From: a bacterium | Lineage (GTDB): Bacteria > AUK180 | Assembly (NCBI GenBank): GCA_023133295.1 | Contig: JAGLWT010000116.1 | Coordinates: 13,218 to 77,217 of the forward strand | Length of the DNA: 64,000 nucleotides | Direction of reading: 5' to 3' | Shown here: piece by piece, positions 8,013 to 29,646 of the stretch | How positions within the stretch are numbered: position 1 is the stretch's first letter | How the letters are laid out: each line of letters opens with the position of its first letter | Translations under genes and position numbers: made by a program | Notes under the pieces: generated by a model | The model's database searches: none | Seen by the model: only the letters and a program-made list of their open reading frames with translations | Told to the model about the DNA's origin: nothing

Positions 8013-8033
8013 TCCGGATATTATCAGGGACGG

Positions 8034-10322: not shown

Positions 10323-10411
<89 letters not shown>

Positions 10412-10450
10412 GATTTGAAAAGGATGCTTTTTCAGCTTCCTTTGAGTTTG

Positions 10451-10861: not shown

Positions 10862-10863
10862 TC

Positions 10864-13805: not shown

Positions 13806-13831
13806 AAAATAAATCCTCCAATCAAAATAGT

Positions 13832-14782
13832 CTATCTAAACAATAAACTGATTCCTAAATGATTTGTCTCGCCGAGATCACCGAAGGGAACATAGGCATA
13901 ATCGAACTGCAGAGTAAGAATATCAACCTTTCTGTTGCCCTGGGTTTTCTGGAAAGTATGATCAAAACCAAATCCAAAGCCTATACTTCCTATCTCCACA
14001 TTGGAATATCCCACACGAAGAGGAATGGCGCTGAACAAGGAATACTCAAGGCCCACAGAGATCACCGCAGGATTACCCGAAGGTATGGATGCCTGAAGCG
14101 AAAGATCCATTCCTTTGATGAGATTATAATTTCCGCCGATAGTAATATTCATAGGTATCTTTTCTGTCGGTATTTCATAATCGCCCGTGACATCCCGCTC
14201 GTATAAGAGGCCTGAGCCGAGATTCGAAATAGCAAGACCGACATTTCCATTGCCTATCTTATACTTCATACCGATATCCATAAGAAAGGTCTCTGCGAGA
14301 ACATTCGCAAGTTCTTCTTTGTAAAATTTACCCGCAACGGCAAAGGAGAAGTTATCTCCTAATTTTTTCCCGTATGTCAAAAAGAATTGATTGTAACTCA
14401 CATCGAACTGCTCTACCGACTCTTCCCAGCTTCCCCATGTAAATGCGTCTATGGGCTCTGTAAAAAACACATTGACCGCAAGGCCGAAGAAATCTGTTTC
14501 CGTGAAGGGAATGCAGAACGCGAAATATTCCATGGATGTATCCACGAGGTAATTTGTCTGGCCGATTGAAACAGAAGCCGCGGTAAATGATGTTACATTC
14601 GCGGGGTTGTAGAATATCGCCAAGGGTTCATTGCTTGAGGTGACCATAGCATTTCCCAGTGAGAACGCCTTTGCTCCGATGGGCATTAAGAGAAATGATC
14701 CGGAGGTCTCACCGTTAGAAACCGCAAATGTGGATACTGCAAAAAGGATGACCGCCAGCGTTATTATTATTTTTTTCATCAT
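13832..14782 (-). CDS. Outer-membrane beta-barrel protein, FadL/TodX/PorV-like (NPA hatch motif). Putative cognate partner of the upstream T9SS cargo
   Basis: Signal peptide [23 protein letters not shown]-terminal [22 protein letters not shown] motif, like the FadL NPA hatch. Alternating hydrophobic beta-strand pattern. Ends in an aromatic-rich C-terminus. Lies 8 nt downstream of the 1081-aa CTD protein. Confidence 0.5.
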
Positions 14783-14789
14783 TATCTCC

Positions 14790-17700
14790 TTATCTCACTA
14801 TTACAAGTTTCCCTTTCATGACATCCTCGTCATCATCAGGGTTGGTTATAACATAGAAATACAATCCGGTAGCTATCGCTTTGCCGTCCTCATTCATCAG
14901 GTCCCACTTCTCGCCGCCGTCACCATAAGTAGTTTCACTGGTGGCGGAATGCTCAATAGTTCTGATAAGACCGCCCTTAATATCGTAAATAGTAATGGTC
15001 GCATTTTCGGTCAGCTGCACGAATACCATATGATTGTTTTCCTGAAGAGCGTCTGCTGTTCCGTAGATGAAAGGATTGGGAACACAATGCGCCAGTTCAA
15101 GATTCTGCTCCTTATCAAAGTCCTTGGAAACCGTAGCGATATTAGACGGCTTACTTTCAAGATCCGTGGTTCTGTTAAAGGAGGTCACAAAATAGTAATA
15201 TGTAGCATACTCATCAATATAAGTATCAACGAATGTATAGGTGTCGGCTCCCGTGGAAGCCACGGCACCGATTTTCTCGATATAATCCTCATCCAAAGGC
15301 TCTACACTATCGTATATCGCGGCAGTGGAACATCTGTAAACATAGTATCGGAAAATATCTCCGGAAGCCTTATTAAAAGTGAGCGTGACGCTTTTATTGG
15401 TGTCTATAGCAACAAGATTTGTGGGATAGTCCGGATTTGTAAAAACACTCCCTGTTTCTACCGGCAATTCTCCTAATGAAGTGTGGTAGTCATACTTTTT
15501 AACCGTATAATTAACGGTAATGTCTCCGGATAGCTCCGGATATACCCAATCAACCATTATTTCCGGATAAGATGTTAGATACAATGTAGTATCCTGCACC
15601 CAACTATAGCCGTTAGGAAGATCCCACAAAGAATATATTTTTGAACCATCGCTTACTCTGTAAAAAGTAGCACCCCAATCGTCAAGACTTTCCCAAACCA
15701 TTTTCTGTGTATTGGTTTCATAAAAGACGGTTTTAGTAGTCCCATATCCTTCCCAAAAATAATTGACCGGGGAGGTATCTGAAGTGGAAATGGTAAAAGG
15801 CGTACTATTCGCAATTTCCTGCAGACAGAAATTGTTCACAATAATCTTCTCAATATTATTCCCAGCAGAGTAATTATACTCTGAGAGGTCAATTAGCACT
15901 TCCGTAAGAGATGATGTATCAATGTAAGTAACATCACTTAAATTGAATCTGTAATCTTCATCACCATATTTGGCATAAACCACATGATCCGTGGCCGCAG
16001 ATTGCAGATATTCATATGCGCCGTTCTGAACATATACTGTGTGAGCGAGCACGGCATTTCTGGTAATTTCATACTTTTCAATGTCCTTTTCCCGTGAGAG
16101 CGGCTCCGTCCACATCAAACGGAATATATTCGAATTATCGTCCAGATAAAAACTAATCTCACCTATTGCGGTAGTAAAATACGGTTCAAAGGTCATCTCT
16201 AGAAGATACGCGGGAACACTCTCATTAAAATACCCTGAGTAAAAATCCGCAAGATCGGTAGAATAGTTGTAATATGCATCATCATGAGCGGATATGCCGA
16301 AGTTGTATTCACCAGATGCACTTGACACATAATCTGTTGACGACAAAACATAAGAGGTTGAAGTGTACACCGCATAAGACGTCGGAGAATTACTCAGGTA
16401 TCCAGTCAGTCGTTGGAGACCTCCATTATCCCCCAATCTGTGAAAACGGAAATCAGCTTTTCCTCCTGCAAACATAAACACCTGATAACCCGCAGCATAT
16501 GGAACTGTTTCGGACGAATTGAAATCAGCAGGATCCCAGATAAGCCGGAATTCAGTCAAGCAGGTTTCTGGGTTATAATACTCATAGTAATTTGTAAGCG
16601 AGGGGGCGGCCGGAGGGGCAATATCTGCGTAGTTCAGTCCGACATTATGCATATCGGCCATTGCGTCATATGAGGCATCAAGGGCATCAATAGCTGCATC
16701 CAGAGTATCTCCCATGGATTTACCAATAGCAAAAAATACTACTTTCGATTCACCCGCTTCGAGCTCATAAGGACCCGCTGTAAGCGCGATAGCGTAATTG
16801 CCTTTTACAGCTGTATTCGAATCAAATCCTTGACCTACAAAATCGCTATAAGTGGCCACCATAGGGTTCCACGGCATGAGTCCGAATTCTTGTGAACTTA
16901 TGCTGTCGCCAAGAGGCCTGTCAATGGCGTAAGCGACCGGAATATTGTCATCGATCCCATTGGAATCTATGTCAGAATAAGCGGGGTCATAGCTAATTAT
17001 CTTGAATCCTGCTGGAGATTCATCCTTATTGAGAAGTTTTACTCCGAGAACAAAATAAGGATTCTCTCCTGCAGTGGACTGCTCATCATATATCACGCCG
17101 AAATTGCCGGTACGATTGAAGTCGGGCTCAACCCAGGCGGCCATATCATCATTTTGCCCTCCATCGGGTATATAAAAACCAAGTGTTTCGGGCGATCCGG
17201 TGCTATACTCATAGTCTACAACTACAGCCGCCTCACTCCATCTTGTCCTGATATCTGCATCAAGACGCTGGGTAACAAAAACCTCTTTCTCTGAATCACT
17301 ATTATTTGTTATTACATACGCCTTTAGCATGATATTATCAAAATCGGGGTGGTAAAACGCAGGGTTGATATCATAATCCGCCCAATCCAAGGCGACACTT
17401 TCAAAGAAATTATTCGCATTTTCTGATGTATAGGAAAAAGTACGGGCATCGACAGATATTCCTTGAGGACTGTGAGAATATTTGTCCATTATTTTACAGT
17501 ATGACTCCAATGGCGCGTAGATTGCATGTCGAGGCGCAAAGTGCCGGTCATATCTGACCATACCCCAAAAACTATCATTGGCGACCGGACCGCCGCCCTG
17601 ATCCAGAAAATAGTCATGTTCCTGAAGAAAATATGTTTGAATGAAGTTGGCATGGCTGAAATCATTTGCATTCCCATTGCTGCCTTGTAAAAGCCAGCTT

Positions 17701-18035
17701 CCAGAAGAATCAGAAACGATCAAACTTCCCATGTACAGGTGATCATAATCCATATACTCATAATAAGCGCCATAGGCCCCCCAGTCCCTTCCCTGGAAGG
17801 AAGTACCCACGCCAAGGTCGGTGGCGCCCGTAACAAACTGATGATCGAAATAACCGCCGAGAAAAGAAAAATTGGTGCCGTCACATCCAGAATAGATGTA
17901 ATCTGCAAGCCAATGTGTCATATACGGCTTATTCCCGTCATTTCCCCACACCCACTCAGGGGTTTCGTAAGAACAAATTGAAACGCTGAACGCGATTAGC
18001 AAAAGGGACAATAGAACTTTCTTTAAAGCTCCCAT
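14790..18035 (-). CDS. Large secreted protein (1081 aa) with a T9SS C-terminal sorting domain; catalytic or adhesive function unknown
   Basis: Signal peptide MGALKKVLLSLLLIAFSVSICS. C-terminus PNPF...ATITIYDIKGGLIRTI...GLYFYVI...KGKLVIVR matches a Por_Secre_tail type-A CTD. The N-terminal 900 aa are Gly/Tyr/Asp-rich beta-type sequence with no recognised catalytic motif. Confidence 0.7.
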   Translation of the reverse strand: MGALKKVLLSLLLIAFSVSICSYETPEWVWGNDGNKPYMTHWLADYIYSGCDGTNFSFLGGYFDHQFVTGATDLGVGTSFQGRDWGAYGAYYEYMDYDHLYMGSLIVSDSSGSWLLQGSNGNANDFSHANFIQTYFLQEHDYFLDQGGGPVANDSFWGMVRYDRHFAPRHAIYAPLESYCKIMDKYSHSPQGISVDARTFSYTSENANNFFESVALDWADYDINPAFYHPDFDNIMLKAYVITNNSDSEKEVFVTQRLDADIRTRWSEAAVVVDYEYSTGSPETLGFYIPDGGQNDDMAAWVEPDFNRTGNFGVIYDEQSTAGENPYFVLGVKLLNKDESPAGFKIISYDPAYSDIDSNGIDDNIPVAYAIDRPLGDSISSQEFGLMPWNPMVATYSDFVGQGFDSNTAVKGNYAIALTAGPYELEAGESKVVFFAIGKSMGDTLDAAIDALDASYDAMADMHNVGLNYADIAPPAAPSLTNYYEYYNPETCLTEFRLIWDPADFNSSETVPYAAGYQVFMFAGGKADFRFHRLGDNGGLQRLTGYLSNSPTSYAVYTSTSYVLSSTDYVSSASGEYNFGISAHDDAYYNYSTDLADFYSGYFNESVPAYLLEMTFEPYFTTAIGEISFYLDDNSNIFRLMWTEPLSREKDIEKYEITRNAVLAHTVYVQNGAYEYLQSAATDHVVYAKYGDEDYRFNLSDVTYIDTSSLTEVLIDLSEYNYSAGNNIEKIIVNNFCLQEIANSTPFTISTSDTSPVNYFWEGYGTTKTVFYETNTQKMVWESLDDWGATFYRVSDGSKIYSLWDLPNGYSWVQDTTLYLTSYPEIMVDWVYPELSGDITVNYTVKKYDYHTSLGELPVETGSVFTNPDYPTNLVAIDTNKSVTLTFNKASGDIFRYYVYRCSTAAIYDSVEPLDEDYIEKIGAVASTGADTYTFVDTYIDEYATYYYFVTSFNRTTDLESKPSNIATVSKDFDKEQNLELAHCVPNPFIYGTADALQENNHMVFVQLTENATITIYDIKGGLIRTIEHSATSETTYGDGGEKWDLMNEDGKAIATGLYFYVITNPDDDEDVMKGKLVIVR

Positions 18036-18258
18036 AGGACCTCCTATAATAATTGTTTAGATATTATACCAAATATATGTTTTGAATTCAATATGTCAAA
18101 ACTTATTGAGCGGTATTAAGATGCTGAAAAATAATTTCTGCAGTTTTCCTTTCTCCTTCCGAAGTAAAATGAAAATTCTGAGGGTCTCACCATTTCACTC
18201 TCAACTTAATTTTACTTTTGTGGAGCGGCCGGTTTTGGAGATCCGTGAATAATAAGTA

Positions 18259-18591
18259 TTAGTTCTCCTGCTTATTCTCCAGAATAATTTCTATATAGGG
18301 ATTTTTCTCAGAATAAATATCGTTGAGGCCGACATATCTCCATTGCTGTCTGTTTGGAGTTCCGGTACTATCATGCAAAAAAATCAATATTGGCTTATAT
18401 GCTTCTTTGAATTTCAGATAGCATATTAACGTATTTTCATCCTTTCGAAAACTGTACCCCTGAAAAACTACTGGGCCACAATCTCTATTAATCATAATAT
18501 CCGGAGATAAATCTATTTCTGACTTACTTTTCGCACATTTCTGCAGATAGAACTCTGTTGATAACCTATCGAAATAAAATGGATACGCCAA
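18259..18591 (-). pseudogene. Orphan or truncated copy of the C-terminal domain shared by the GT-C-like membrane proteins at 21108..24877
   Basis: YLKFKEAYKPILIFLHDSTGTPNRQQWRYVGLND aligns with FLRFEKYKPIYLFFHDNFEKPTYQKWRYIDYKLLD from the C-terminus of the 601-aa protein. There is no membrane domain upstream. Confidence 0.5.
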
Positions 18592-18884
18592 CTCTGATTT
18601 CGATTCAAAAAAGCTTTCCCGAGAAAAAGGTCGATGGCAGGATCAATGTCACTTCTAAATACTCTTTTATTTTAAAATATCATATGAGTATTGAAGTTAA
18701 CTGAAAGGTTCTCCGAAGAGAGTAAGATCATATCGCTTCTTAATTCTGAAAATATCACCTCGCTGAATCCTATATTGTGAAACCGCCAACGCAGATACCC
18801 GTCAGATATGACTTTAATATTGTGTGGGGACTCAAATGATGGCATTTTTTCAATTAAACCTCTATTGTTGGTATTTTTCCTGCT

Positions 18885-20231
18885 TTGATGTATAATTTAC
18901 CTATGAAGGCAGTAATAATTGGCGCGGGATTAGCCGGTATCAGCGCGGCAAAATCCTTGCATGAAACAACTTTGTTCGACATGATCACATTGCTGGAAAA
19001 GAATCCGTATATTGGCGGAAGCGCCCACTCATTTTCCTTTGACGGTCTTCTATTTGACACTGGACCGCATCGTTTTCACACGCATAGCAAAGAGCTTAAA
19101 TCCGAAATAATATCTCTCTTTCGTGAAAGTGAGTTGGTATTGAAGAAAAAATCCAGCTCGATTTTTTTCAGAGAAAAAATATTGAACTACCCGATAGAAA
19201 TGAGTGATGTTCTCTTCAAACTACCATTAACCGATTCCGTTTCTTCGCTTAGTTCCTACTTATCTTCAAAGATCAGAAATGGCTTCAGACAGCAGGAACC
19301 CGCGAATTTCGAGGAGTATATAATTTCTAATTTCGGAAGAAAACTATATAATATCTATTTCCGCCCGTACACCGAAAAAATGTGGCATATGCCCGCCAAG
19401 GACATCTCCTCTCTCTGGGCAACGGAGAGGATCCCTTTGGCATCTTTTTCAAAGCTACTTCTAAAAACTGTCGTATCTCTATTCAAGCGGCGTTTCAAAG
19501 AGAGCCACCCTCACTCTCCATATGAAACCCTTTTTCTTTATCCCGAAAACGGCATAGAGATGATCTCACAGCGCCTGATACCCGGGGGCATTGAATTATT
19601 AAAAGGATTTGAAGTAAAGAGTGCTGTAAATAACGGAGATAGGCTGACCGCTGTATCTAACGGAGACATGATAGTTGAAGGCGACCTTTTCATTTTTACA
19701 AATCCGCTGCCGCAAACCGCACGGATGTGTTTAAACACCGACGCAGCAGATCTGAAATACCTGCCGATACATATGTTTTTTATTCCGATCGAAACCGCAC
19801 GGATATCCCGTAACCACTGGATATATTTTCCGGATACAAAAGATGTTTTCTACAGGGTATCAGAGATGAAAAATTTCACAAACACATACCCGGAGAACAG
19901 GACCTCGCTCATTGTTGAAGTTGGAGAATTGCACAATGACAGCGTGGACGAAACTTTCGAGCTCATTATCAAGCAGCTTTCAGAAAAGGGACTCCTGCAA
20001 GCCCGGCATATCCGTAAGGGTAATTTTAAATATCATTTTCTGAAGAACGGATATCCTATATATAAAAAGGGTTTTGAAGCAAAAAGGGAAATGATGTACT
20101 CAAAACTCGGCCATATAAAAAATGTAGGCATTGCGGGCAGGCAGGGGCTGTTCTCATATTTGAATATGGACGCGGCAATACTATCCGGCAGAAGGACGGC
20201 GGAAAATTTACTTACAGAGCTTAAGAACTGA
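18885..20231 (+). CDS. FAD-dependent oxidoreductase, UDP-galactopyranose-mutase (Glf)-like
   Basis: MKAVIIGAGLAGISAA dinucleotide-binding motif (the likely true start is the ATG at 18903). GGSAHSFSFDGLLFDTGPHRFHT closely resembles the Glf GG..(x)..GPHIFHT motif. At 448 aa it is longer than canonical Glf. Confidence 0.5.
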   Translation: MMYNLPMKAVIIGAGLAGISAAKSLHETTLFDMITLLEKNPYIGGSAHSFSFDGLLFDTGPHRFHTHSKELKSEIISLFRESELVLKKKSSSIFFREKILNYPIEMSDVLFKLPLTDSVSSLSSYLSSKIRNGFRQQEPANFEEYIISNFGRKLYNIYFRPYTEKMWHMPAKDISSLWATERIPLASFSKLLLKTVVSLFKRRFKESHPHSPYETLFLYPENGIEMISQRLIPGGIELLKGFEVKSAVNNGDRLTAVSNGDMIVEGDLFIFTNPLPQTARMCLNTDAADLKYLPIHMFFIPIETARISRNHWIYFPDTKDVFYRVSEMKNFTNTYPENRTSLIVEVGELHNDSVDETFELIIKQLSEKGLLQARHIRKGNFKYHFLKNGYPIYKKGFEAKREMMYSKLGHIKNVGIAGRQGLFSYLNMDAAILSGRRTAENLLTELKN

Positions 20232-20819
20232 TAATCGTCCTGAAAACGATGAAGCCGTCTTTTTCATATACTTTTTCAAAATTCAGATCTGCAGTCTTTT
20301 CCACCAGGAAGGGTTTTTCAGGGATCCATTGATTAGAATATGCCCGCATATCTTCAAGGCTCACTACCTCTAAAGGAATGAGATTGTTCTTTTTCCCGAA
20401 AAAATACGGGTTGGGAACTATATAATTGATCCGGTTCCTTAAAACCATCTTTTTCATCTCTGCAGGGGTGATATCGGGATGGAAAAAGTCATCGTATTCC
20501 CTTTTTCTATGAAGAACATCCGCGGCCGCGGGATTTGCCACCAGCGGCCATACATGGAATGCGTAATTGTCCGTGGATGTGGCGATATGATAGGCTGTCC
20601 ATTCATCGGAAAGAATATTTTTTTCTCTATTTTATTGTCTGTAAAATAAGTAATGACGCCGGGGAGTTTCGCTTGATCACCCTTGGGTATATGGCGGTTT
20701 AGCAGTGAGAAATTCCGCTTAATGTTGCCTGTATTGAAAAACATCAAAAGGAGTATAATGATACAGATAGTTCCGATAATATAGGGCCGCTTAATTTTCT
20801 TCAGAAGTAACGCCGCCAC
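20221..20819 (-). pseudogene. Frameshifted, N-terminally truncated paralog of the 773-aa membrane protein (26215..28536)
   Basis: Two overlapping track ORFs in different frames. One reads KGDQAKLPGVITYFTDNKIEKK. The other reads NILSDEWTAYHIATSTDNYAFHVWPLVANPAAADVLHRKREYDDFFHPD...NYIVPNPYFF. Together they align collinearly with residues about 500-773 of the 773-aa protein (KLPEIIRYFNKNNIKGGNIISDHWTSYHMAIFTNNYAFAIWPLVADPNAKDVLQREKDYRIFFNE...YIILNPYFY). The frame switches within an A7 homopolymer near 20622-20630. Confidence 0.65.
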
Positions 20820-21107
20820 ATAAGCAATAATAAGAAATACCGTGATAATGTTCGGGAGCTTTGATGCGTATGCACTTGAAATCAGTTTTGATATCAGAGG
20901 AACAAAAAATGGGTTATCGGGTCCCCGATGTAATCGGGGTTTCCAAGGTCACACGCTCAATAACGATAATGACAGTACTTTTTTAGTCATTCCTGTCCCA
21001 TATTAAGCATGTACTCAACTTGATTGGTTGTGCGGGGTAAACTGCATCGTGATAATCTCATTTTCAATTCTTTCCTTATCAACCTACCAACCTATCAACT
21101 TATTTAC

Positions 21108-22913
21108 TTAATTCACTGATATTTCCATTTTGTAATTATTTTTATCTCCAACGGGATAAATGGGCTTCAAATTATCATCGGTAAACAGAATATAGCCATT
21201 TTTGACATCACCTTTAATCTCCATATCAATTTTTACATTTTTTTCTGAATCAAGTAACTTATAGTCAATATATCTCCATTTTTGATAGGTAGGTTTTTCG
21301 AAGTTATCATGAAAAAACAAATATATCGGTTTATATTTTTCAAATCTTAAAAAAGTGATCAGTGTCTTTTTTTCTTCCTTTATTTTTATTGAATAACCTC
21401 TAAATCTAAAATATTTAAAATCCTTATTCAATATATTTTCCGGATTCATTTCAATTCTTTTGTTATTTGCAACTCTATACAATTTTGTATCAATTAAACT
21501 CCGTTCAAAGATAATCGGGAAGGTGTTGTTCCCACATATAAATGTTCCTTTTATAAAAAGATCAAAAGGAAGTTTCGTTTTTCTACTGTAAGATTTCATT
21601 AACATAATATTATACGGTAATTCATTCTTTATAATTAAATTTTCTAAATTTGCATTTGTAGCGATTAACATATCCGCTTTCATTTTTCCAAAATCAAGTT
21701 CCGGAATATTATTTTTATAAAACAAATACCTACTTGCTTCACCGCTTACAGCATAGATTTTCTTATTTTCGTTATCGTTAATTACTTTGTTTCCGACCTC
21801 CGCTGCCGTCTTTGAGTAATCGTAAAATCCTGTAATAAATATTAGAGAAAATGAGATTGCAAATATTAGTTCAAATACACTAAATTTTCTTTTAAATAGA
21901 TTATCTCTTGAATAAAATATAATGAACGGAAATATTAAAGAAAAATTCCTTACCGTTGGCTGCGGATACACAATTATAATTGCAAAAGATATAAAAAGTA
22001 ACCACAAAATATTTTTAAGATCAAATAGCAAAAGGATAGAAATAAGCAAATAGAGAGAAATAATGAATGCAATAATTTTTGAAATATCCGTATTCAAATA
22101 GATACAAAGAAATAATATAGGTAAAAGGAAAAAATACATTTTCTTTTTTCGGGATAAATAGATTAGGATTGGTAATGTAAGAATAGCTAAGTTAATTGGA
22201 ACCGAAAATACTTTTTGAAAAAATCCTATCCTATTTCCGTAATGGTAATCTCCTCTCCATACCAAGGCATCCAAAATAACATTTCCCCCTTTTTCAATAT
22301 AACATATTAGGATATAAAGAAAAATAACAATGATTGGAAAAAAGTAAATGTATACTTTCTTATCTTTTCGTATGATCATATCTATTAGAAAAAACAAGGC
22401 AACTAAAATTATAGCGTAATTTGTTAGAAGTGAAAAGGACAAAAACAAAGATGATAGAATAATATCTTTTAATTTTCTACTTTTTTTATAATCTTCATAT
22501 TTTAAGAAACTTAATATCAGAAAAACAAAGCAGTATGCTTCATGCATAAATGAATTAACAAACAACAAAACAATTGGTGAAATAAATACCAGAAATATTA
22601 GATATTTTTTAGCGGTATATTTTCTAATTATCAGCATAAACACAAAAAGGTAGAGCAAACTTGAAAAAAGATAAAATAAAAATATGTCCTCCTGAATTGG
22701 GAAAAGCGAGGCAAAGAGTAATAAAAGCGGCGGATGCGTATCATTATATACATAAGATTCTTTACCGTAATATGAAAAAGAAGCATTAAATAAACCGCCA
22801 TTTTTGATTGATATCGCGCTAATTAAGTTTTTGGAACTATCCCAAAAGGGAGGGATGAAAATAGTTACTAACACCAGTACGGTTAAAATTATAATGAGAT
22901 ATTTCTTTTTCAC
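21108..22913 (-). CDS. Multi-TM membrane protein, GT-C fold ArnT/PMT-like (GT39/GT83-type) putative glycosyltransferase with a conserved C-terminal soluble domain
   Basis: More than ten predicted TM helices. The first extracytoplasmic loop contains NDTHPPLLLLF, like the HPPL motif of PMT_2/ArnT-type GT-C enzymes. The C-terminal about 110 aa (FLRFEKYKPIYLFFHDN...YQKWRYI...VKNGYILFTDDNLKPIYPVGDKNNYKMEI) is shared with the protein encoded at 22925..24877. Confidence 0.45.
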   Translation of the reverse strand: MKKKYLIIILTVLVLVTIFIPPFWDSSKNLISAISIKNGGLFNASFSYYGKESYVYNDTHPPLLLLFASLFPIQEDIFLFYLFSSLLYLFVFMLIIRKYTAKKYLIFLVFISPIVLLFVNSFMHEAYCFVFLILSFLKYEDYKKSRKLKDIILSSLFLSFSLLTNYAIILVALFFLIDMIIRKDKKVYIYFFPIIVIFLYILICYIEKGGNVILDALVWRGDYHYGNRIGFFQKVFSVPINLAILTLPILIYLSRKKKMYFFLLPILFLCIYLNTDISKIIAFIISLYLLISILLLFDLKNILWLLFISFAIIIVYPQPTVRNFSLIFPFIIFYSRDNLFKRKFSVFELIFAISFSLIFITGFYDYSKTAAEVGNKVINDNENKKIYAVSGEASRYLFYKNNIPELDFGKMKADMLIATNANLENLIIKNELPYNIMLMKSYSRKTKLPFDLFIKGTFICGNNTFPIIFERSLIDTKLYRVANNKRIEMNPENILNKDFKYFRFRGYSIKIKEEKKTLITFLRFEKYKPIYLFFHDNFEKPTYQKWRYIDYKLLDSEKNVKIDMEIKGDVKNGYILFTDDNLKPIYPVGDKNNYKMEISVN

Positions 22914-22924
22914 ATCAATAATCT

Positions 22925-24877
22925 TTATTTTATCTCCATTTTACAGTTATTTTTATCTCCAATGGGATAAATGGGTTTCAAATTATCATTGGTAAACAGG
23001 ATATAACCGTTTTTGACACCACTTTCAATCTCCAGATCAATTCTTACATTTCCGTTCAGATCAAGCAAGTAGTGAGCAATATATTTCCATTTTTGATAAT
23101 CAGGTTTTCCGATATTATCATGAAAAAAAGCATAAGTCGGTTTATATTTTTCAAATCGTACGAAAAGACTCAATATCTTTTCTTGTTCATTCTCTTCAAT
23201 TGAGTAGCCTATAAATTTAAAATACTTAAAATTCATATTTATAATATGTTCCGGTTTCACTTTTCTTGTCTTTATTTTAGCGAAGTGATTTTGTCTATCA
23301 AATCTGAAAATATTAATATTTTCCAATTCAACATTGGATAATGAGTACGGTAATATTCCTAAGTTATTATCATAAAATCCTGCATGTGCCTTGGCGTTCA
23401 TTATTCTATATGGAAACTTACTTTTATAAATAACTTTTTCTATGTGAAGCAGATCCGGTCTAATACTATTTTTTAATTCAGCTGGACATGAATAAGTTGG
23501 AATGATCATTATATCATTTTCCTTTAATTCATTTGAATTCCAGCAATAATATTTAGCATCTATCTTCTCTAAATAGTATCTAAAGCCCCATTCACCCATA
23601 AACCAGACTCTGTTGTTTTTAACAGTAGATTTGATTTCATCAGCAAATCTTTTATAGCTTTCTGCAAATCTATAATCAGCATAAGTAATGCCGATGGTAT
23701 TTCCTAATGTAAGTATTAGCGTAATTGCAATGAACACTTTTTTTAATACTAAATTTAAATTCAAATTTATTAGATCATACGAAATAATAATTGTAATAAC
23801 CGGCAATGTAATTAATAAATATCTTGCAATGCCCAACGGCATAATTAAAGTACAAATGATTAAATACAAAAGAAAGCAAATTGATAAGAATTTTGTAACA
23901 GAATTATTGGGTCTTATAAATTCTTTAATAATTCTAAACATAATTAATAATCCGGAAAATAGAAATATTATAAATAATGACCTGCTTATAAAATTGAAAT
24001 TCCTGGTAAAAAATATCGTACAAGCGATAGTTATTAGTAATTGAATTATTAATAACTTTTTATTTACCGACTTAAGAAGATACAGAGCTATTATTGATAT
24101 GGGGAAAATAGTGGTGGAGCCTATCACTATAATATTTGAAATAAATTTAGGAATGAGCATTGATATAGCCCTTAGCTTTAAATTTGTGTCACCGGGCCAC
24201 ATTAACGCATATAATGGATGTGGAAATCCAAATTTTATTGTTGTGAAGATTATCCAGATCAATATTGATGATAAACAAATTAAAAAGGGTATATAATAAA
24301 TAAATTTCTTTTTTTTGAAAATAAGATAGTACAAAACAAACAAAAAAAGTAGAAATATACCCCGATAATCAATTCCCCATGATATTATTGAAGTAAGTCC
24401 TGATAAAATTAAGAGTAACACATTGTCGTTTTTTACTCCTTTTATAAAAAACAAAAATGCTAATAAAAAAAATGAAAACATTGGAACATCACTCATTATA
24501 CTAATTGACGAAGTAAACAGTATTGAAGAGAAGGAAAACAGAAAGATTGCTGTAAAAGAAAACAAATCAAATTCCTTTAGTATAAAGTACATAGAAACAA
24601 TAGATAAAATATAGAAAATAATATAAAATAAATGAAAATAAGTTTCATTTACCTCTCCTACAATTATATAACAGAAATGACAGTATAAAAAGTTTAGAGG
24701 TGGCTTGGTAAATTTGTAATACGGTACAGTTTCACCAAGAAAATATACATAATTCTCCTTCGAAAAGAAATTCTTTATAGGAACTTGACCATAAGGTGTC
24801 CTCTGAATAGATTCAATTGTCTTATGGTCATCTATATTGAATGGTTTGTTTACAAAAATTAACTGGACTGATAACAT
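22925..24877 (-). CDS. Multi-TM GT-C-like putative glycosyltransferase, tandem paralog of 21108..22913
   Basis: Same architecture. Loop motif YKFTKPPLNFLY. C-terminus FVRFEKYKPTYAFFHDNIGKPDYQKWKYI...GVKNGYILFTNDNLKPIYPIGDKNNCKMEIK. The 3' ends are about 85-90% identical to 21108..22913 at the nucleotide level (compare 21125-21200 with 22935-23010). Confidence 0.45.
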   Translation of the reverse strand: MLSVQLIFVNKPFNIDDHKTIESIQRTPYGQVPIKNFFSKENYVYFLGETVPYYKFTKPPLNFLYCHFCYIIVGEVNETYFHLFYIIFYILSIVSMYFILKEFDLFSFTAIFLFSFSSILFTSSISIMSDVPMFSFFLLAFLFFIKGVKNDNVLLLILSGLTSIISWGIDYRGIFLLFLFVLYYLIFKKKKFIYYIPFLICLSSILIWIIFTTIKFGFPHPLYALMWPGDTNLKLRAISMLIPKFISNIIVIGSTTIFPISIIALYLLKSVNKKLLIIQLLITIACTIFFTRNFNFISRSLFIIFLFSGLLIMFRIIKEFIRPNNSVTKFLSICFLLYLIICTLIMPLGIARYLLITLPVITIIISYDLINLNLNLVLKKVFIAITLILTLGNTIGITYADYRFAESYKRFADEIKSTVKNNRVWFMGEWGFRYYLEKIDAKYYCWNSNELKENDIMIIPTYSCPAELKNSIRPDLLHIEKVIYKSKFPYRIMNAKAHAGFYDNNLGILPYSLSNVELENINIFRFDRQNHFAKIKTRKVKPEHIINMNFKYFKFIGYSIEENEQEKILSLFVRFEKYKPTYAFFHDNIGKPDYQKWKYIAHYLLDLNGNVRIDLEIESGVKNGYILFTNDNLKPIYPIGDKNNCKMEIK

Positions 24878-25390
24878 GATGATCAGTAATAAAAAAAACT
24901 TAATTCCTTTTAAATTATATTTTTCTATAATAACTAACCATCCTTTTCTTTAAGGAACCTTTTCTCGCTTCCTTCGGTCATTTCAGATTTTTTTAAATCT
25001 CCTTCTCTATCGTAAGTCTGCTCCTTTTTGACATATTGCCTTCATTTCATCCGAAAGGACGAATTCCATTTCGCTACGCTGCATTCCATTCGCCCTTCAT
25101 GGTGTAAACTATTGTTTGTCTCACTTTCAAGGGAGAGCAGGACATTGTGACCTATCAGATTAGTTGAAATATATCGGATTTTTCAGAAAAAGTCAAATAA
25201 TTTATTGTTTCTATATATCAAAATATGCGTTTTTTTATTCTAACCATTTTGATTTGATAATATTTTTAAGTTCACGATTGCCTTTAACATTTAAATGATA
25301 AGTTTTATCGAGAGAGAGTTTATCCGGAATAAAAATGCAACTTTTTATATCTAATTCCTTATTAATTTTTTCAATATCATCCACCATTTT

Positions 25391-26218
25391 TTAAAAAAAA
25401 TAATACTTATTATCTTTTTTGTTCTGTGTCAACATATAATTCCCAAGTATAATAATTGACAAATTGTATTCATTCTGAATCTTTTTTATAAGATACCTAT
25501 ACCTATTTAATCCTTCATTATAATCTTTACTGTACTTTTTAAAATATTCATAACTGTCTTCTCCTTGATAGTATTGGCTTTTCTTTTTGTCTTTAATATT
25601 TAATGATAAATACATCGGGTGCAAAAGAGCAATCAATGGATCATTATTTATAATCCAGGGAAATGCTCTTTTATTGGGATAAACTATTGAATATTCATTC
25701 CCATTTTTAACTATTGTCGGGGCTGATCCTGGATAACGAAAGAACTCTCCAAAATCATTTCCTATATAGAAAATAATAAGCACATTTGAACCTTTTGAGA
25801 TATTATATTTTTTAAGTAAAAGATACTCTTGTATCGGCGAATATGTAATAACCCCGAAATTATAAAAATAATACCCATTCCCCTCTTTATTTAACAGAGA
25901 TGTAAAGAGATTGTTGTTTATAACATAATTATCAGTTTGAGAATCTCCCAATACATATATAGGAATCTCATTATCTCTTATTTTTCTGCAATTTCGATTA
26001 CCATATTTCCCTGTTTTGATCTTTGCCTTTGATCGTCGAGCCTGATAAAATTCATTGTGTTTAATTCCAAGTATATTATCATAAACATAGGAACCATATC
26101 CATTTTTACCCTTATTAAAACCACTGATATTACAATGAACAAATAAAATAATATCCAATAATAAAAAACAAATTATAATAAAAAGTAGTATCTTTAAAGC
26201 TTTTTTGAAGATATTCAT
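25391..26218 (-). CDS. SGNH/GDSL-family hydrolase-like protein (possible glycan O-acyl esterase or transferase)
   Basis: N-terminal TM anchor. IPIYVLGDSQTDNYV gives a GDS(x) block-I motif. Overlaps the upstream 773-aa gene by 4 nt. Confidence 0.45.
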   Translation of the reverse strand: MNIFKKALKILLFIIICFLLLDIILFVHCNISGFNKGKNGYGSYVYDNILGIKHNEFYQARRSKAKIKTGKYGNRNCRKIRDNEIPIYVLGDSQTDNYVINNNLFTSLLNKEGNGYYFYNFGVITYSPIQEYLLLKKYNISKGSNVLIIFYIGNDFGEFFRYPGSAPTIVKNGNEYSIVYPNKRAFPWIINNDPLIALLHPMYLSLNIKDKKKSQYYQGEDSYEYFKKYSKDYNEGLNRYRYLIKKIQNEYNLSIIILGNYMLTQNKKDNKYYFF

Positions 26219-28536
26219 TTTAAGTTCACCATTATAAATCTTTTATTTCTAATGGGTAAATACGGTCTATGATTCCTATCTGTAAAAATGATTTTATAGT
26301 CTCCATTATTCTTAGATATCTTAATATGACATTTAACAAAAGACCATACACCCATTTCTTCCATAGTTAATGAGTGCCAATTTTGTACTACAAGTTTATC
26401 ATCCTTATAATTATGAATAAACATAACCAGATCATCATCTATTTCCTTCATCTTTAAATATATTTCATAGATATAATTATTTTCTTTTTCAATCTTGTTA
26501 TACCCTAAAAAAATGAATTTTCTATAATTTAAATTTACTTTATGTTTATAATCCAAAGCTATTTTTTTGCTTTTATCTAACATTTGATTGCTATGGAAAT
26601 TCATCTTAAAAATATAATATCCATTTTCACAAAAAACCTGTTCTGCATTTAACTTTAAAACTTTATCTACAATAAAATTCCGATCCGGGCCCCATTGTAA
26701 AGAGTGTTTCCACATATTTTCAATAGAATTTACTTCAATGGCTTTAACATTTCGTTCCGGTTTATAAAAATAGGGATTTAATATTATATACTTTATACCC
26801 CATTTTTTTAAGATTTCATCCATTTCTTTTACTTTAGTTTTCTCATTAAAAAAGATTCTATAATCTTTCTCCCGTTGTAGAACATCTTTGGCATTGGGAT
26901 CAGCTACGAGTGGCCAAATTGCGAAAGCATAATTATTTGTAAATATAGCCATGTGATATGAAGTCCAGTGGTCTGATATTATATTTCCCCCTTTTATATT
27001 ATTTTTATTAAAATATCGTATAATTTCGGGCAACTTGCTTTTTTGTGATACACCTATATTATTCTTTATCAGTTTATAATCGCGTACCAAATTCTTAAAG
27101 ATTTTGGGACTTATAATCAGCAAAAAACATATTAGCAAAAAACCGAAATATTTTGTCTTCAATTTCTTTTTCAATTCAAGAATTATAAAAGCCAAAATTA
27201 AAAAAGCAGGTACAAATATACTTAATTTCGAAGCATAAGCACTACTGATTATTTTTGATAAACCTACTACAAGAATTGGATTTAACAACAACAAAGGAGA
27301 AAGGACTGCTGTTGATATCATAAATTGTAAAGTAGTGTTTCTTCTAATTTTTTTAATAAAAAACAATATTCCTAAAAAAGCTATCAATGGAGTAATCGGA
27401 TAAATTGTAGGTGGTAGTGTAAACATAATATAGATTTGGCGAAAGACAAATTTTGGATGAATAATAAACAGATTTTTTGTAAGAAAGACGAGGTGATCCG
27501 GAAGAAAGAAAGCTTGCTGTGCAAGTTGTGGATCATAATGTAATGGATTGTGAATACCATAAGATAACCATTTTAGAATGTAATAAGGAATATTGAAAAT
27601 CGTAACATAGAAAAAGATCTCTATAACCCTTCTATTACTTTTATCCCTCAATAATATTTTCACAAGAAATATCGCAAAGAGCGAAAGATAGAAAAGAATC
27701 ATATAGAATATCTGAAATTCCGTCAATATCAAAGAAATAATTATTGTAGTCCAAAGGTATTTTTTATCACTGCTGTCAAGGTATTTAATCATTTCAATTA
27801 GTGCCAACGGCAATATCGTATACATTGCAATAGCATCCGCGAGTGCAAATTTTCTCAATATCAATCGCTCATACCCTATTCCCCCGAAATGAAAAATAAA
27901 TACTAATACTACAAGTAAACCACCAAGATTTTTCTTCAAAAGATGTTTCCCAAAACAATATTGGGCAAATATAGCAATAAAGCTCATATACGCCGGAAGA
28001 TTTATCCATATTTTTAAAGGATCCAATCCGGAAATTTTGCTGTAAATCAATATCATAAAATGGTAAAGGCTAAAAGAGAATCTCGGATCCATCCCTTCAT
28101 TACTATAGACAAAATTCTTGTTTTGCACTATATTGTTAAAAAGAGATTTGTAAATTATGGAAAGGTTGTTAAGATCGTTTGCAATATCTCCTTTAATAAT
28201 ATAAAGCAATATTACATAAACCAGTGCTATACCAATTGTAACAGATGAATAAGTGTTAAGCGGTATGATTTTTGTGCTTTTTATTTTTTTTGAAAGCAAT
28301 AGAAACAAAAAGAACATTACTAATAAAATATATATTACATATACTAAAAATACCGTTTTTTTAAGCGATAGCTCAAAAAGAAACCCTAAACCACAAGGGA
28401 TATAATAAATTAAAAGGGAAAGCACAAAGAAATACGGAACTTTTTCAATACCTAATTCCTGAGAAAAGAAAATTCTATATATGACGATGCCTGGAACAAT
28501 AAATAAAAAAATAAAATAGAGTAATTCAATTATCAT
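26215..28536 (-). CDS. Large multi-TM membrane protein (773 aa), GT-C/YfhO-like putative glycosyltransferase, with a related C-terminal soluble domain
   Basis: About 14 TM helices followed by a roughly 280-aa C-terminal soluble region. The last 80 aa (DDLVMFIHNYKDDKLVVQNWHSL...GDYKIIFTDRNHRPYLPIRNK) resemble the C-terminal domain of the 601-aa and 650-aa proteins. The pseudogene at 20221..20819 is a paralog. Confidence 0.4.
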   Translation of the reverse strand: MIIELLYFIFLFIVPGIVIYRIFFSQELGIEKVPYFFVLSLLIYYIPCGLGFLFELSLKKTVFLVYVIYILLVMFFLFLLLSKKIKSTKIIPLNTYSSVTIGIALVYVILLYIIKGDIANDLNNLSIIYKSLFNNIVQNKNFVYSNEGMDPRFSFSLYHFMILIYSKISGLDPLKIWINLPAYMSFIAIFAQYCFGKHLLKKNLGGLLVVLVFIFHFGGIGYERLILRKFALADAIAMYTILPLALIEMIKYLDSSDKKYLWTTIIISLILTEFQIFYMILFYLSLFAIFLVKILLRDKSNRRVIEIFFYVTIFNIPYYILKWLSYGIHNPLHYDPQLAQQAFFLPDHLVFLTKNLFIIHPKFVFRQIYIMFTLPPTIYPITPLIAFLGILFFIKKIRRNTTLQFMISTAVLSPLLLLNPILVVGLSKIISSAYASKLSIFVPAFLILAFIILELKKKLKTKYFGFLLICFLLIISPKIFKNLVRDYKLIKNNIGVSQKSKLPEIIRYFNKNNIKGGNIISDHWTSYHMAIFTNNYAFAIWPLVADPNAKDVLQREKDYRIFFNEKTKVKEMDEILKKWGIKYIILNPYFYKPERNVKAIEVNSIENMWKHSLQWGPDRNFIVDKVLKLNAEQVFCENGYYIFKMNFHSNQMLDKSKKIALDYKHKVNLNYRKFIFLGYNKIEKENNYIYEIYLKMKEIDDDLVMFIHNYKDDKLVVQNWHSLTMEEMGVWSFVKCHIKISKNNGDYKIIFTDRNHRPYLPIRNKRFIMVNLK

Positions 28537-28786
28537 TTTTAGTTATTATATAAATCTTGGAAATCCCGAAAAACCATGAATAAGCATTTTTTATCAGGGA
28601 TTTTATGATTTTTTTAAAGCGGAGTGTAACAATACTGATATAATTTTCCTTATTATGGTAAGGGCTTTTTATCCCAAAAAGTAAACGAAAATATGGATTT
28701 GAATTTAAAACAAATCTGGACTGTATCCATGTAAACTTAAATATCAGTTTATTTTGAAATATTCTTTCTATTACGGTCATAGTCAT
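28526..28786 (-). CDS. Small hypothetical protein (86 aa) whose start and stop both overlap the neighbouring genes
   Basis: The ORF overlaps the start of the 773-aa gene (28526-28536) and the stop of the methyltransferase gene (28783-28786), consistent with translational coupling. No recognisable family. It could also be a spurious bridging ORF. Confidence 0.3.
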   Translation of the reverse strand: MTMTVIERIFQNKLIFKFTWIQSRFVLNSNPYFRLLFGIKSPYHNKENYISIVTLRFKKIIKSLIKNAYSWFFGISKIYIITKNDN

Positions 28787-29646
28787 CTACCCTCTACTTT
28801 TTTTGCATAAATTGTTGCCACATCAAAAAGATTGAGATATATTTTAATCTTTCCTATCTTATTTTTCAATAAAAATAAATATATCGCTTTAAATATAGGA
28901 AATTTTCTTTGAATATGATAAAAGATATGTCTTGAATAATAAAATTTCCCGTAATATTTAATAGATTTAATTTCAAACCCATTATTATTACAAAAGTATT
29001 TAATACTTTTCTTTGTAAAATAATTTAAATGATATGGGGGTATAAAAAGGTACCATTTTCTCCCCATTATTCGAGCAAATAGTGAATCTATCAGAGGAAC
29101 TGTTAATATGAGCGCTCCATTTGCATTAAGATCTTTACCTATGTTACGGAGCATTCGCGCGGGGTATTTTACATGTTCAAATATATCAAATGCGGTGATA
29201 ATATCATATTTCGTATCTTGTGAAGAGGTTTCGTAATTATGAACTTTCAGGTCAAGAAAGTATCTTTCCTTTCCAAGGGCAATAATCTCCTCTCCTATAT
29301 CAACACCCTGAAGCTGCATATTCGAAATTTCGGAAATGGAGTAAAGAAACTCACCGGAAGCACAACCGATATCTAAAAGAGAAGATGCTCGCTTGGAAAC
29401 ATGTTTCACAAGCCTTCTGAAAATCTGACACCAATTTCCATCAATGCAATCGTCAATATAATTTCCGTATCCTTCGTCACTATTTGGATTTACAAAGGAG
29501 TCCAGATTATATAGATCGTCATATCGTATATCTGCAAAACCCTCATAGAACACCGAGCCGCAATTTGAACATTTTACATGCTTTTTCACAATCTCTCTTT
29601 TCAATATCATAAGGGAGTTGCAGCCGCATAATTTACATTTTTTCAT
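28783..29646 (-). CDS. Class I SAM-dependent methyltransferase with an N-terminal zinc-ribbon (sugar C/O-methyltransferase-like)
   Basis: CKLCGC...CSNCGS zinc ribbon. LLDIGCASGEFL matches motif I (GxGxG-like). A later D..FEH(V) acidic motif is typical of Methyltransf_11/12-family enzymes. Confidence 0.65.
   Translation of the reverse strand: MKKCKLCGCNSLMILKREIVKKHVKCSNCGSVFYEGFADIRYDDLYNLDSFVNPNSDEGYGNYIDDCIDGNWCQIFRRLVKHVSKRASSLLDIGCASGEFLYSISEISNMQLQGVDIGEEIIALGKERYFLDLKVHNYETSSQDTKYDIITAFDIFEHVKYPARMLRNIGKDLNANGALILTVPLIDSLFARIMGRKWYLFIPPYHLNYFTKKSIKYFCNNNGFEIKSIKYYGKFYYSRHIFYHIQRKFPIFKAIYLFLLKNKIGKIKIYLNLFDVATIYAKKVEGR

Follow-up and report, generated by a model that had tools for sequence, protein, structure and literature searches.

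Two interrupted coding sequences lie on either side of an intact gene for a Glf-like flavoenzyme in a 64,000-nt stretch of DNA (the window) from an uncultured FCB-group bacterium of a South China Sea cold seep. Are they dead remnants of glycosyltransferase genes, the halves of one gene split by an insertion, a gene that merely looks broken because of an error in the sequence, or a gene that can be switched on by slippage in a homopolymer?

Fragment A is truncated and frameshifted

The two sequences, here called fragments A and B, resemble parts of a 773-aa protein (p773) encoded in the same window (26215-28536, minus strand). When p773 was compared with the window by tblastn, fragment A (minus strand, 20239-20915) was found as a match to residues 419-644 in two frames: residues 419-523 align with 20915..20577 in frame -3 (36% identity, E 5.8e-14), and residues 518-644 with 20619..20239 in frame -2 (44% identity, E 3.8e-31). 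Both pieces were also detected when the window was searched in six frames with a profile of the 33-member family (E 1.5e-8 and 5.3e-20); beyond fragment A and the p773 gene, the profile matched nothing else there. A previous sequence-only reading had described a two-frame match at 20221..20819 to residues 500-773. The two frames were correctly recognized, but the residues are about 419-644, and the homology extends ~100 bp further, to ~20915.

The proximal frame (20619..20918, minus strand; p773 residues 419-523, positions 420-529 of the family HMM) comprises the last predicted membrane helices and the beginning of the periplasmic domain; in the structural model of p773, the helices at 420-497 fall within this region. 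The distal frame (20221..20619, minus strand; residues 518-644, HMM positions 526-630) corresponds to the periplasmic alpha/beta domain. Nucleotide 20619 is common to the two frames, and the switch between them is confined to gagaaaaaaatat, an A7 run of the minus strand which reads T7 at 20618-20624 on the plus strand. Insertion of one A into the run mends the frame and gives FTDNKIEKKNILSDEWTAYH, which aligns with FNKNNIKGGNIISDHWTSYH of p773 without a gap. These results bear out the earlier placement of the frame change in the A7 run, and are consistent with the loss of one A from an ancestral A8.

The N-terminal half had been reported as missing, and indeed p773 residues 1-418 have no counterpart in fragment A, which is truncated at its 5' end. 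The missing 5' part of the gene amounts to ~1.25 kb, and only ~170 bp separate the start of the homology from the stop codon of the next gene (21108). Upstream of fragments A and B, tblastn and profile searches of the window revealed no further family signal in any frame. Fragment A thus shows both kinds of damage by which a pseudogene is recognized: parts of the gene are missing, and the A-run inside the homologous stretch is one nucleotide short. Decay was to be given up as an explanation if the homopolymer proved to be a basecalling error and a full-length intact gene existed; this outcome is precluded, since the missing 1.25 kb would not fit into the space available.

The stop codon of fragment A (20221-20223) is in the 11 bp that the fragment shares with the 3' end of the Glf-like gene. 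In 24 of the 33 family members the strand 'GYIIFKV' is followed by the end of the protein within 2-15 residues, and fragment A ends 4-6 residues past 'GFIVFRT', its equivalent of this strand. Because most family members stop shortly after the same terminal strand, the stop of fragment A is taken as the native stop of the family. The C-terminal domain described below is not part of fragment A.

The intact homologue is a predicted GT-C glycosyltransferase

The AlphaFold model of p773 (pLDDT 77.5 overall) is mostly confident over residues 1-649, with the exception of loops 494-500 and 591-615. Its top Foldseek matches in the PDB were DPY19, STT3/PglB/AglB, ArnT and AftA (probability 1.0, E 2.5e-7 to 1e-5), and by this model p773 is a predicted glycosyltransferase of the GT-C fold. 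The likeness to these enzymes covers the whole membrane core and the soluble domain and includes an acidic residue in the first periplasmic loop region (Asp121), which is invariant across the 33-member family alignment, whereas sequence identity to the solved structures is 8-13%. In contrast to GT-C enzymes, fragments A and B wholly lack the catalytic core; the region of Asp121 is absent from fragment A, and the conserved acidic residue characteristic of the fold is thus present in p773 and not in the fragment.

Comparison of p773 with Pfam and NCBIfam gave no matching family, and its relatives match only DUF6541, DUF6077, DUF1616 and PTPS_related. The family is rare: a profile search using an alignment of p773 and the two window-exact frames of fragment A as query found 122 members among 1.84 billion cluster representatives. 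In this collection fragment A and p773 are mutually closest (42% amino acid identity), the next best value being 25%. A C-terminal domain of ~125 residues is common to p773, fragment B and two other intact proteins encoded on the minus strand, p601 (21108-22913) and p650 (22925-24877); this extra domain was found nowhere beyond this contig, and other representatives of the family lack it. The same locus also encodes a GT2 enzyme, two carbamoyltransferases, SGNH/GDSL proteins, a methyltransferase and a Wzy_C/TPR protein.

Authenticity and significance of the A7 run

Indel errors typically arise in homopolymers, and the perfect repair of the frame by one added A could mean that fragment A is in reality one uninterrupted reading frame, broken only in the assembled sequence. 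This is very unlikely. The reads are of the Illumina HiSeq X Ten 2x150 type (PMC9357000), and the ENA scaffold and the Logan contig, generated with different assembly software, are 100% identical over 10.6 kb, the A7 run included. The assembled tract is A7 in both of these assemblies of the same run, and a third assembly is consistent with it. This third one, the NCBI MAG contig (77.9 kb), carries consecutive protein accessions in the same order, and there the 106-aa distal-frame ORF of fragment A is called as a gene of its own (KAU32_08700), as expected if the frame is broken upstream. Moreover, A/T runs of 7-8 nt are common in the window (n=41, none longer than 8), and 32 of the 41 are located in intact long ORFs whose frames are unbroken in the same assembly. 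Nor would correction of the run alter the verdict of a pseudogene, since the ORF would then still be without residues 1-418.

Glycosyltransferase genes that are phase-variable through homopolymer tracts are well known as contingency loci in Campylobacter, Haemophilus and Neisseria, and slipped-strand phase variation had been suggested for this A-run as an alternative to decay. As in those loci, a surface-glycan gene is broken here at a mononucleotide run. The frames can be joined by one added A or by a -1 shift on G_AAA_AAA, and a GTG at 20819 could start an ORF of ~200 aa, so that slippage of the DNA, the transcript or the ribosome might switch on a short protein consisting of a membrane anchor and the periplasmic domain. 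In contrast to contingency genes, in which an unusually long tract interrupts an otherwise intact gene, the tract here is a short one of 7 nt, a length matched or exceeded by dozens of other runs in the window and nothing unusual for this genome, no variation in its length was seen between assemblies, and the gene carrying it is already headless, without its first 418 codons. As a site of programmed frameshifting G_AAA_AAA is only partly slippery, and a stimulatory structure is absent from the downstream 88 nt (folding z = +0.53 relative to shuffled sequences). The product would be devoid of the catalytic GT-C core, the adjacent fragment B has plainly decayed, as its nonsense codon shows (see below), and among the 1.84 billion representatives covered by the profile search the sole short protein that closely matched fragment A by BLASTP was the fragment's own ORF. 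A switch operating at this run is therefore hardly credible.

None of four alternative versions of the fragment ORFs was present in a protein collection queried for exact matches. In a word-indexed search the repaired A+B sequence matched none of 5.8 billion proteins, not even p773; the index is insensitive for this query.

Fragment B carries a nonsense codon

Fragment B (18187..18600, minus strand) was identified by tblastn, a domain HMM and alignment as the 5'-truncated C-terminal accessory domain of a p601/p650-type gene. Positions 18190-18600 match the domain common to the 601-, 650- and 773-aa proteins: in tblastn, 18585..18220 aligned with p601 residues 465-586 (35% identity, E 6.5e-19), and a profile of the three C-terminal domains matched with E 3.7e-19. 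The interval 18259..18591 had been assigned to the shared C-terminal domain, and this assignment is correct, but the end point is not. The triplet at 18259-18261 is a premature in-frame TAA, aligned to a Gly of p601 and p650, and past it the homology runs for 23 more codons (YLLFTDLQNRPLH...LRVKW vs YILFTDDNLKPIYP...) to a final stop at 18187-18189, which is aligned with the paralogues' own stops. Fragment B is thus also damaged in the two ways expected of a pseudogene, covering only the last ~120 residues of p601 and being interrupted by the TAA.

Fragment B opens with its own copy of the terminal strand (YPFYFDR, compared with NIFRFDR in p650), and it is more similar to p601 (35% identity) and p650 (33%) than to p773 (24%). 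These two observations suggest that fragments A and B come from two source genes.

One gene or two

The gene located between fragments A and B (18888..20231), on the opposite, plus strand, is intact and encodes an FAD-dependent oxidoreductase of the PRK07208 / amine-oxidase type (Pfam, NCBIfam). In Pfam it matches NAD_binding_8 and Amino_oxidase, with GLF borderline (26.9 vs cutoff 26.3). Against TIGR00031 (UDP-galactopyranose mutase) it scores 68.6 bits, far from the cutoff of 303.75, and the best NCBIfam models, PRK07208.1-4, at 195 bits, are below cutoffs too. Judged by these scores, 'Glf' is over-specific for this flavoenzyme, and 'Glf-like' is a loose label.

The position of this gene raises the possibility that an inverted 1.6-kb insertion carrying the Glf-like gene split a single p773-like gene into two halves, fragments A and B. 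The fragments share one strand and are collinear with p773 (residues 419-644, then 647-758), the 1.65-kb gap between them contains only the Glf-like gene and its upstream region, and p773, the nearest kin of fragment A, is the one family representative that has the C-terminal domain. Collinearity on the same strand is, however, weak evidence, because almost every gene of the region is on the minus strand. The split-gene idea is weakened by the alignments, in which fragment A ends at the native terminus, the natural stop of most family members, and in which the terminal strand of the periplasmic domain is present twice, as GFIVFRT in A and YPFYFDR in B. It is also at variance with the closer relationship of fragment B to p601 and p650 (see above) and with the absence of a target-site duplication or terminal repeats from the Glf segment, around which a search for direct, inverted and terminal repeats and for a target-site duplication gave only chance-level matches. 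Finally, a convergent arrangement of the two gene types occurs in another genome: on the contig of the nearest Glf homologue (47% identity) Glf is likewise convergent with a GT-C (PMT_2) gene. Taken together, a single split gene appears unlikely. By tblastn, nothing resembling p773, p601, p650 or the fragments was found on the contigs of the Glf homologues with 47% and 43% identity, and among the GTDB species genomes the best match to the Glf protein had 34% identity, a close relative being absent.

A low-GC block and a repeat at the truncation point

The intact homologues are located in a block of low GC content (21050..29050, minus strand; GC 0.26-0.28, GC3 0.23-0.28), which comprises p601, p650, a 275-aa protein (p275, 25391-26218, minus strand), p773 and, at its right end as judged by composition, the 3' third of the methyltransferase gene (minus strand). 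This 8-kb block is the only one of its kind in the 64-kb window, and both edges are sharp: GC changes between 0.40-0.45 and 0.24-0.28 within ~100 bp at ~21.05-21.11 kb and at ~29.05 kb, the right edge lying inside the intact methyltransferase ORF, where GC3 drops from 0.33 to 0.18. GC3 is 0.23-0.28 in p601, p650, p275 and p773 (0.26 in p773), 0.39-0.47 in fragments A and B (0.42-0.47 in fragment A), 0.47 in the Glf-like gene and 0.41-0.47 in host genes. The block thus has the compositional break with sharp borders of a genomic island. As to hallmarks of mobility, no integrase, transposase, tRNA target or flanking direct repeats were found at the block, the Pfam scan for recombinases having covered the genes within about 12.8-54.8 kb other than the island's 84-aa ORF; the sole tRNA gene of the window is at 10323-10411. 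Low GC is typical of membrane-protein and glycan genes in general and is no proof of transfer.

Fragment A had been termed a frameshifted paralog. Homology to p773 is beyond question, but a recent duplication within the genome fits poorly with GC3 values of 0.42-0.47 vs 0.26 and an identity of 42%. Since the one is host-like and the other low in GC3, and the two are nevertheless mutually closest, fragment A and p773 look like divergent alternative cassettes of one locus.

A dispersed repeat of ~70 nt (20903..20973), containing the hairpin CCCCGAT-tac-ATCGGGG, marks the point where fragment A is cut off at its 5' end. Another copy, in inverted orientation, is at 51896-51968, and the two are 94.5-97% identical. 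The repeat had no Rfam match and no tRNA identity, and its fold is not exceptional. An inversion between the copies, which would have moved the missing 5' half to 51.9 kb, was considered and rejected: near that position only a 7.6-bit HMM match (51713-51832, minus strand, E 0.12) and an opposite-strand tblastn match (E 0.16) were found, and these signals are at noise level and mutually inconsistent.

The Logan contig breaks at 20938, inside the repeat and near the GC step, and an inverted copy of the repeat lies 31 kb away, so the junction between host-GC and low-GC sequence could be conceived as a chimera of the metagenome assembly, with the truncation of fragment A created by a false join. 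This is highly improbable, as host-GC sequence is present on both flanks of the block, the right edge is within an intact methyltransferase ORF, and the ENA scaffold (125.5 kb) and the NCBI contig both traverse the block and agree in gene order. Exact repeats of at least 34 nt are places where a k-mer assembler should break, and the contig size classes for p773 fit breaks at both repeat copies.

Related genomes were of little help. An intact version of the gene in relatives had been proposed as a check, but public data contain no intact orthologue. Relative GCA_030596505.1 (94.5% nucleotide identity, GAPDH contig) was seen as a 5.2-kb contig ending inside p1081, and in a relative at 71% GAPDH identity, too distant to be informative, none of these genes is beside the p1081 orthologue. 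No JGI metagenome contig matched p1081. The 90%-identity clusters of ten window proteins contained members of this population only, except for two short proteins, a 50-aa JGI/IMG fragment (p650 cluster) and a 178-aa ENA protein from a 1.1-kb contig (methyltransferase cluster). A second population with this locus did not come to light.

Cassette turnover in a surface-glycan locus

Fragments A and B are probably non-functional relics of two membrane glycosyltransferase genes, left behind by successive cassette replacement in a surface-glycan locus. Recombination or turnover had been suggested before, and the anatomy agrees with it: each fragment has lost its 5' end and carries one further lesion, and they are found at the edge of a foreign-looking block. 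Gene A would have been a member of the rare p773 family (GT-C fold) with ~650 codons, of which fragment A represents the 3' 35%. Its first ~418 codons, encoding the catalytic membrane core, appear to have been lost, and later one A from an A8 run; what was retained is the final membrane helices, the periplasmic domain and the family's own stop codon. Of gene B only the C-terminal accessory domain of roughly 125-135 residues would have survived, everything upstream being lost and a nonsense codon gained. The low-GC block may have arrived by horizontal transfer or recombination, displacing the 5' part of a resident p773-type gene, with one junction at the 70-nt repeat and the other within the methyltransferase gene; an earlier event, which brought the Glf-like gene and possibly gene A, would already have removed the 5' part of gene B. 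Neither fragment is likely to give rise to a working protein now. A related genome with the pre-replacement arrangement was not found in public data, so the order of these events is read from composition and anatomy alone. As p773 and fragment A are mutually closest in all public data, any donor must share the gene pool of this lineage, or else the block may be an old resident with deviant composition.

The closest parallel is provided by the galactose-initiated O-antigen clusters of Salmonella, in which remnants of wzy and an H-repeat remnant at a recombination junction have been described, and in which the glycosyltransferase, wzx and wzy genes have 28-37% GC in a genome of 51-52% GC (PMC3715488). 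In both systems truncated membrane glycan-assembly genes adjoin intact equivalents, the variable genes are low in GC (here 26-28% vs about 43%), a small repeat element is found at one junction, and separate fragments tell separate deletion histories. The systems differ in that the genes encode Wzy polymerases in Salmonella and GT-C-fold transferases of an uncharacterised family here, no IS or H-repeat-type element is recognizable here, and the present lineage, an uncultured one of the FCB group, comes without serotype data or alternative alleles from which the exchange could be reconstructed.

A bolder and quite improbable extension would make the locus a hot spot that swaps low-GC glycan cassettes, with the hairpin repeat at the block edge as a dedicated site of recombination or capture, and the lineage-restricted GT-C family with its unique C-terminal domain as exchanged specificity modules. 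If this were true, one replacement after another could be read off the stacked relics of this uncultured deep FCB lineage.

In practical terms, KAU32_08700, annotated as a 106-aa 'hypothetical protein' in the NCBI MAG, is part of a pseudogene and ought to be left out of gene counts. The analysis opens no long-standing question, but it draws attention to a rare, uncharacterised GT-C family. The findings point to commonplace turnover of genes at a surface-sugar locus rather than to a switch, and cassette turnover, known from the O-antigen and capsule loci of cultured pathogens, probably takes place in an uncultured cold-seep bacterium of the FCB group as well.

Results

The region studied is part of a long series of genes on the minus strand. 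When the intact 773-residue membrane protein p773 (26215-28536, minus strand) and its distant relatives p650 (22925-24877, minus strand) and p601 (21108-22913, minus strand) were used as tblastn queries against the whole window, two gene fragments were detected. Fragment A (20221-20918, minus strand) matched p773 in two frames: residues 419-523 at 20915..20577 in frame -3 (36% identity, E 5.8e-14) and residues 518-644 at 20619..20239 in frame -2 (44% identity, E 3.8e-31). Fragment B (18187-18600, minus strand) matched residues 465-586 of p601 at 18585..18220 (frame -2, 35% identity, E 6.5e-19) and residues 647-758 of p773 at 18552..18226 (frame -2, 25% identity, E 0.005). A p773-family profile (33 members), searched against the six-frame translated window, recognized nothing but p773 and, at E 5.3e-20 and 1.5e-8, both frames of fragment A. 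A profile made from three C-terminal domains picked out only p601, p650 and p773, together with fragment B at E 3.7e-19. Since tblastn and both profile searches agree, the observation made in the sequence-only reading is real. The two-frame similarity of fragment A to p773 stands, but its extent, given there as residues 500-773, is actually about 419-644 and excludes the C-terminal domain. The assignment of 18259..18591 to the common C-terminal domain is borne out by the p601 and profile matches of fragment B.

The two frames of fragment A have nucleotide 20619 in common. In the upstream direction the distal frame reaches only to a stop four codons before NILSDEW, and in the proximal frame homology disappears directly after IEKK; therefore the shift lies within gagaaaaaaatat (T7 on the plus strand, 20618-20624), the only site left by these limits and the one originally proposed. 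One A added to the run allows alignment to p773 without gaps, and the simplest history of the frameshift is that an A8 run lost one A. Upstream of about 20918 no homology was found in any frame, and only about 170 bp separate this point from the p601 stop at 21108, thus about 418 codons are missing, in agreement with the reported lack of the N-terminal half. Fragment B contains an in-frame TAA (18259-18261) opposite a Gly of p601 and p650 in the alignment. Past it the same frame continues (YLLFTDLQNRPLH..KSKIKLRVKW) to a stop at 18187-18189, and this end aligns with the p601 end YILFTDDNLKPIYPVGDKNNYKMEISVN-stop. Neither tblastn nor the domain profile revealed anything similar to the remainder of a p601/p650-type protein upstream of about 18600. 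Each fragment is thus truncated at the 5' end and carries one more disabling mutation.

The source of the window is ENA scaffold ZHAN22-2_SAMN18200500 scaffold_46 (125.5 kb). Its sample, RS_12 (SAMN18200500), belongs to the Site-F series of cold-seep metagenomes from the South China Sea and was sequenced on Illumina HiSeq X Ten (2x150; PMC9357000). An independent Logan assembly of SRR13892600 was 100% identical over window positions 10330-20938, A7 run included. In the 77.9-kb NCBI MAG contig (locus tags KAU32_) gene order is unchanged and the 106-aa distal-frame ORF has its own annotation as a hypothetical protein, which is what a break farther upstream in the frame of fragment A would produce. 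The window contains 41 A/T runs of 7-8 nt (longest 8); because 32 of them lie inside intact long ORFs, the assembler copes correctly with such runs and the A7 tract is unremarkable. The 88 nt downstream of it have no exceptional structure (z = +0.53). Slipped-strand phase variation, suggested previously, thus found no support, the tract being ordinary for the window and the catalytic core absent. Programmed frameshifting is unsupported as well, since fragment A without the catalytic core leaves nothing useful to switch on.

No Pfam or NCBIfam model matches p773. Its family is small, with 122 proteins reaching E <= 1e-3 in a full HMMER search of 1.84 billion cluster representatives, and 9 of these E <= 1e-30. 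Some members match DUF6541, DUF6077, DUF1616 or PTPS_related. The AlphaFold model of p773, computed from the 33-member alignment (pLDDT 77.5), is mostly confident over residues 1-649, two loops excepted, and its best PDB matches in Foldseek were all GT-C glycosyltransferases (DPY19, STT3/PglB/AglB, ArnT and AftA; probability 1.0, E 2.5e-7 to 1e-5). Asp121 is invariant across the family. p650 has a weak PMT_2 match and the NCBI name 'glycosyltransferase family 39 protein'. Fragment A starts at the model helix that begins at residue 420 and keeps nothing beyond the final membrane helices plus the alpha/beta domain in the periplasm. Even with its frame mended, it could not be a transferase. Apart from p601, p650, p773 and fragment B, nothing was found to carry the C-terminal domain (roughly 120-147 aligned residues), the other 121 p773-family representatives included. 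AlphaFold did not model it (pLDDT below 40), because the alignment lacked that domain. In eight longer family members its place is taken by another extension, about 190 aa long.

Between the fragments lies an intact FAD oxidoreductase gene, the Glf-like gene (18888-20231, plus strand). With 68.6 bits against TIGR00031 (cutoff 303.75) it was rejected as a UDP-galactopyranose mutase equivalog; it scores best against PRK07208-type FAD oxidoreductases that carry the annotation hypothetical, and its closest homologues are only 47% and 43% identical. The first is in another glycan cluster, where it adjoins a GT-C gene; the 3.5-kb contig of the second carries no glycan genes.

Fragments A and B could be halves of a single p773-like gene split by insertion of the Glf-like gene, as they are collinear with p773 and the 1.65 kb between them contains this plus-strand gene only. 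However, 24 of the 33 p773-family members stop 2-15 residues past the terminal strand 'GYIIFKV', and fragment A stops 4-6 residues past its 'GFIVFRT', from which we conclude that its stop is native. Moreover, fragment B opens with its own copy of the terminal strand (YPFYFDR; NIFRFDR in p650), is much closer to p601 and p650 (35% and 33% identity) than to p773 (24%), and the nearest Glf homologue is likewise convergent with a GT-C gene on its own contig. Taken together, these points make derivation from two source genes probable, with the split gene as the less likely alternative. Under either model, the Glf-bearing segment must now fill the former site of the 5' part of the parent gene of fragment B.

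Composition was the most informative result for explaining the fragments. GC3 is 0.41-0.47 in flanking host genes, 0.47 in the Glf-like gene, 0.42-0.47 in fragment A and 0.39 in fragment B; in p601, p650, a 275-aa protein and p773 it is 0.23-0.28 (overall GC 0.26-0.28). The 64-kb window has one low-GC block only, and both its edges are sharp: the left (~21.05-21.11 kb) coincides with the p601 stop, and the right (~29.05 kb) falls within an intact, compositionally mosaic class I SAM methyltransferase ORF (28783-29646, minus strand). GC3 of this ORF is 0.33 in codons 1-190 and 0.18 in codons 191-288, and since the step coincides with the block edge, it may mark a point of in-frame recombination. 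p773 and fragment A (42% identity) are mutually closest in the representative library, the next best match being 25%. Inside the block, 513 bp between p650 and the 275-aa gene (24878-25390) contain no ORF of at least 60 codons.

The interval from the left block edge to the point at which fragment A breaks off contains a repeat of about 70 nt, whose second copy is inverted at 51896-51968. The surrounding 1.1 kb (51372-52509) is a gene-free patchwork of short modules, which recur inverted in other intergenic regions (303-332, 3592-3649, 3764-3794 and 20909-20973) as copies of 30-65 nt, 90-97% identical. Several have hairpins (e.g. GGACAGG..CCTGTCC, CCCCGAT-tac-ATCGGGG) together with REP-like motifs ('GTCATTCC..GGGAATC' and 'GTCATCCTGAGC..GAAGGATCC'). 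The modules had no Rfam match and resemble dispersed REP/MITE-like elements of one family. Adjoining the second repeat copy, a 40-codon open frame (51713-51832, minus strand) scored 7.6 bits against p773-family profile positions 320-351 (E 0.12 among 2379 fragments), probably noise.

T9SS-type features in the window (a PorV-like protein, and a 1081-aa protein, p1081, with a CHU_C/Por_Secre_tail-like end) and GAPDH relatives of 63-68% identity in Cloacimonadota, Calditrichota and Aegiribacteria together point to a deep FCB-group lineage as host. An intact orthologue of either fragment was sought in related genomes and none was found in the searched collections, including the 1.84 billion cluster representatives. 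The nearest contigs, from GCA_030596505.1 (94.5% nucleotide identity, 5.2 kb) and GCA_030622125.1 (GAPDH 76% identity), end inside p1081. In a relative with 71% GAPDH identity (ERZ795125 NODE_1, 1-8989, compared with window 14790-51371) a 2896-aa LTD/Big_5 protein directly adjoins the p1081 orthologue, with none of the window's glycan genes beside it. In the window, the LTD/Big_5 proteins (43878-46940 and 47835-51371) are separated from p1081 by 26-33 kb, a distance that includes the glycan cluster, ComEC and the HhH proteins. The difference suggests that one of the two lineages underwent a large insertion or rearrangement.

Discussion

The glycan locus also has a GT2 enzyme, two carbamoyltransferases, SGNH/GDSL proteins, the methyltransferase and a Wzy_C/TPR protein. 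Taking into account the composition, the repeat, the kinship of p773 with fragment A and the restricted distribution of the C-terminal domain, the fragments look like earlier occupants of a variable glycan locus, and the low-GC block looks like an alternative, incoming cassette from the same specialised gene pool. The incoming cassette would have displaced resident glycosyltransferase genes of this surface-glycan locus, leaving relics at its edge. The same pattern is seen in Salmonella O-antigen clusters, which contain non-functional wzy remnants, GT/wzx/wzy genes of 28-37% GC in a genome of 51-52% GC and, at one recombination junction, what remains of a repeat element (PMC3715488). That the fragments are inert relics of two genes is probable; the specific history, displacement by an incoming cassette, has somewhat better than an even chance. 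The earlier view of turnover among glycosyltransferase genes is supported by the truncations, the extra lesions and the position at the block edge.

The finding is ordinary biology of a well-known kind, two GT-C-type pseudogene relics bordering a low-GC block, the presumed replacement cassette. The value of the two relics lies in annotation, and they serve as a pointer to the p773 family, a rare uncharacterised GT-C family.
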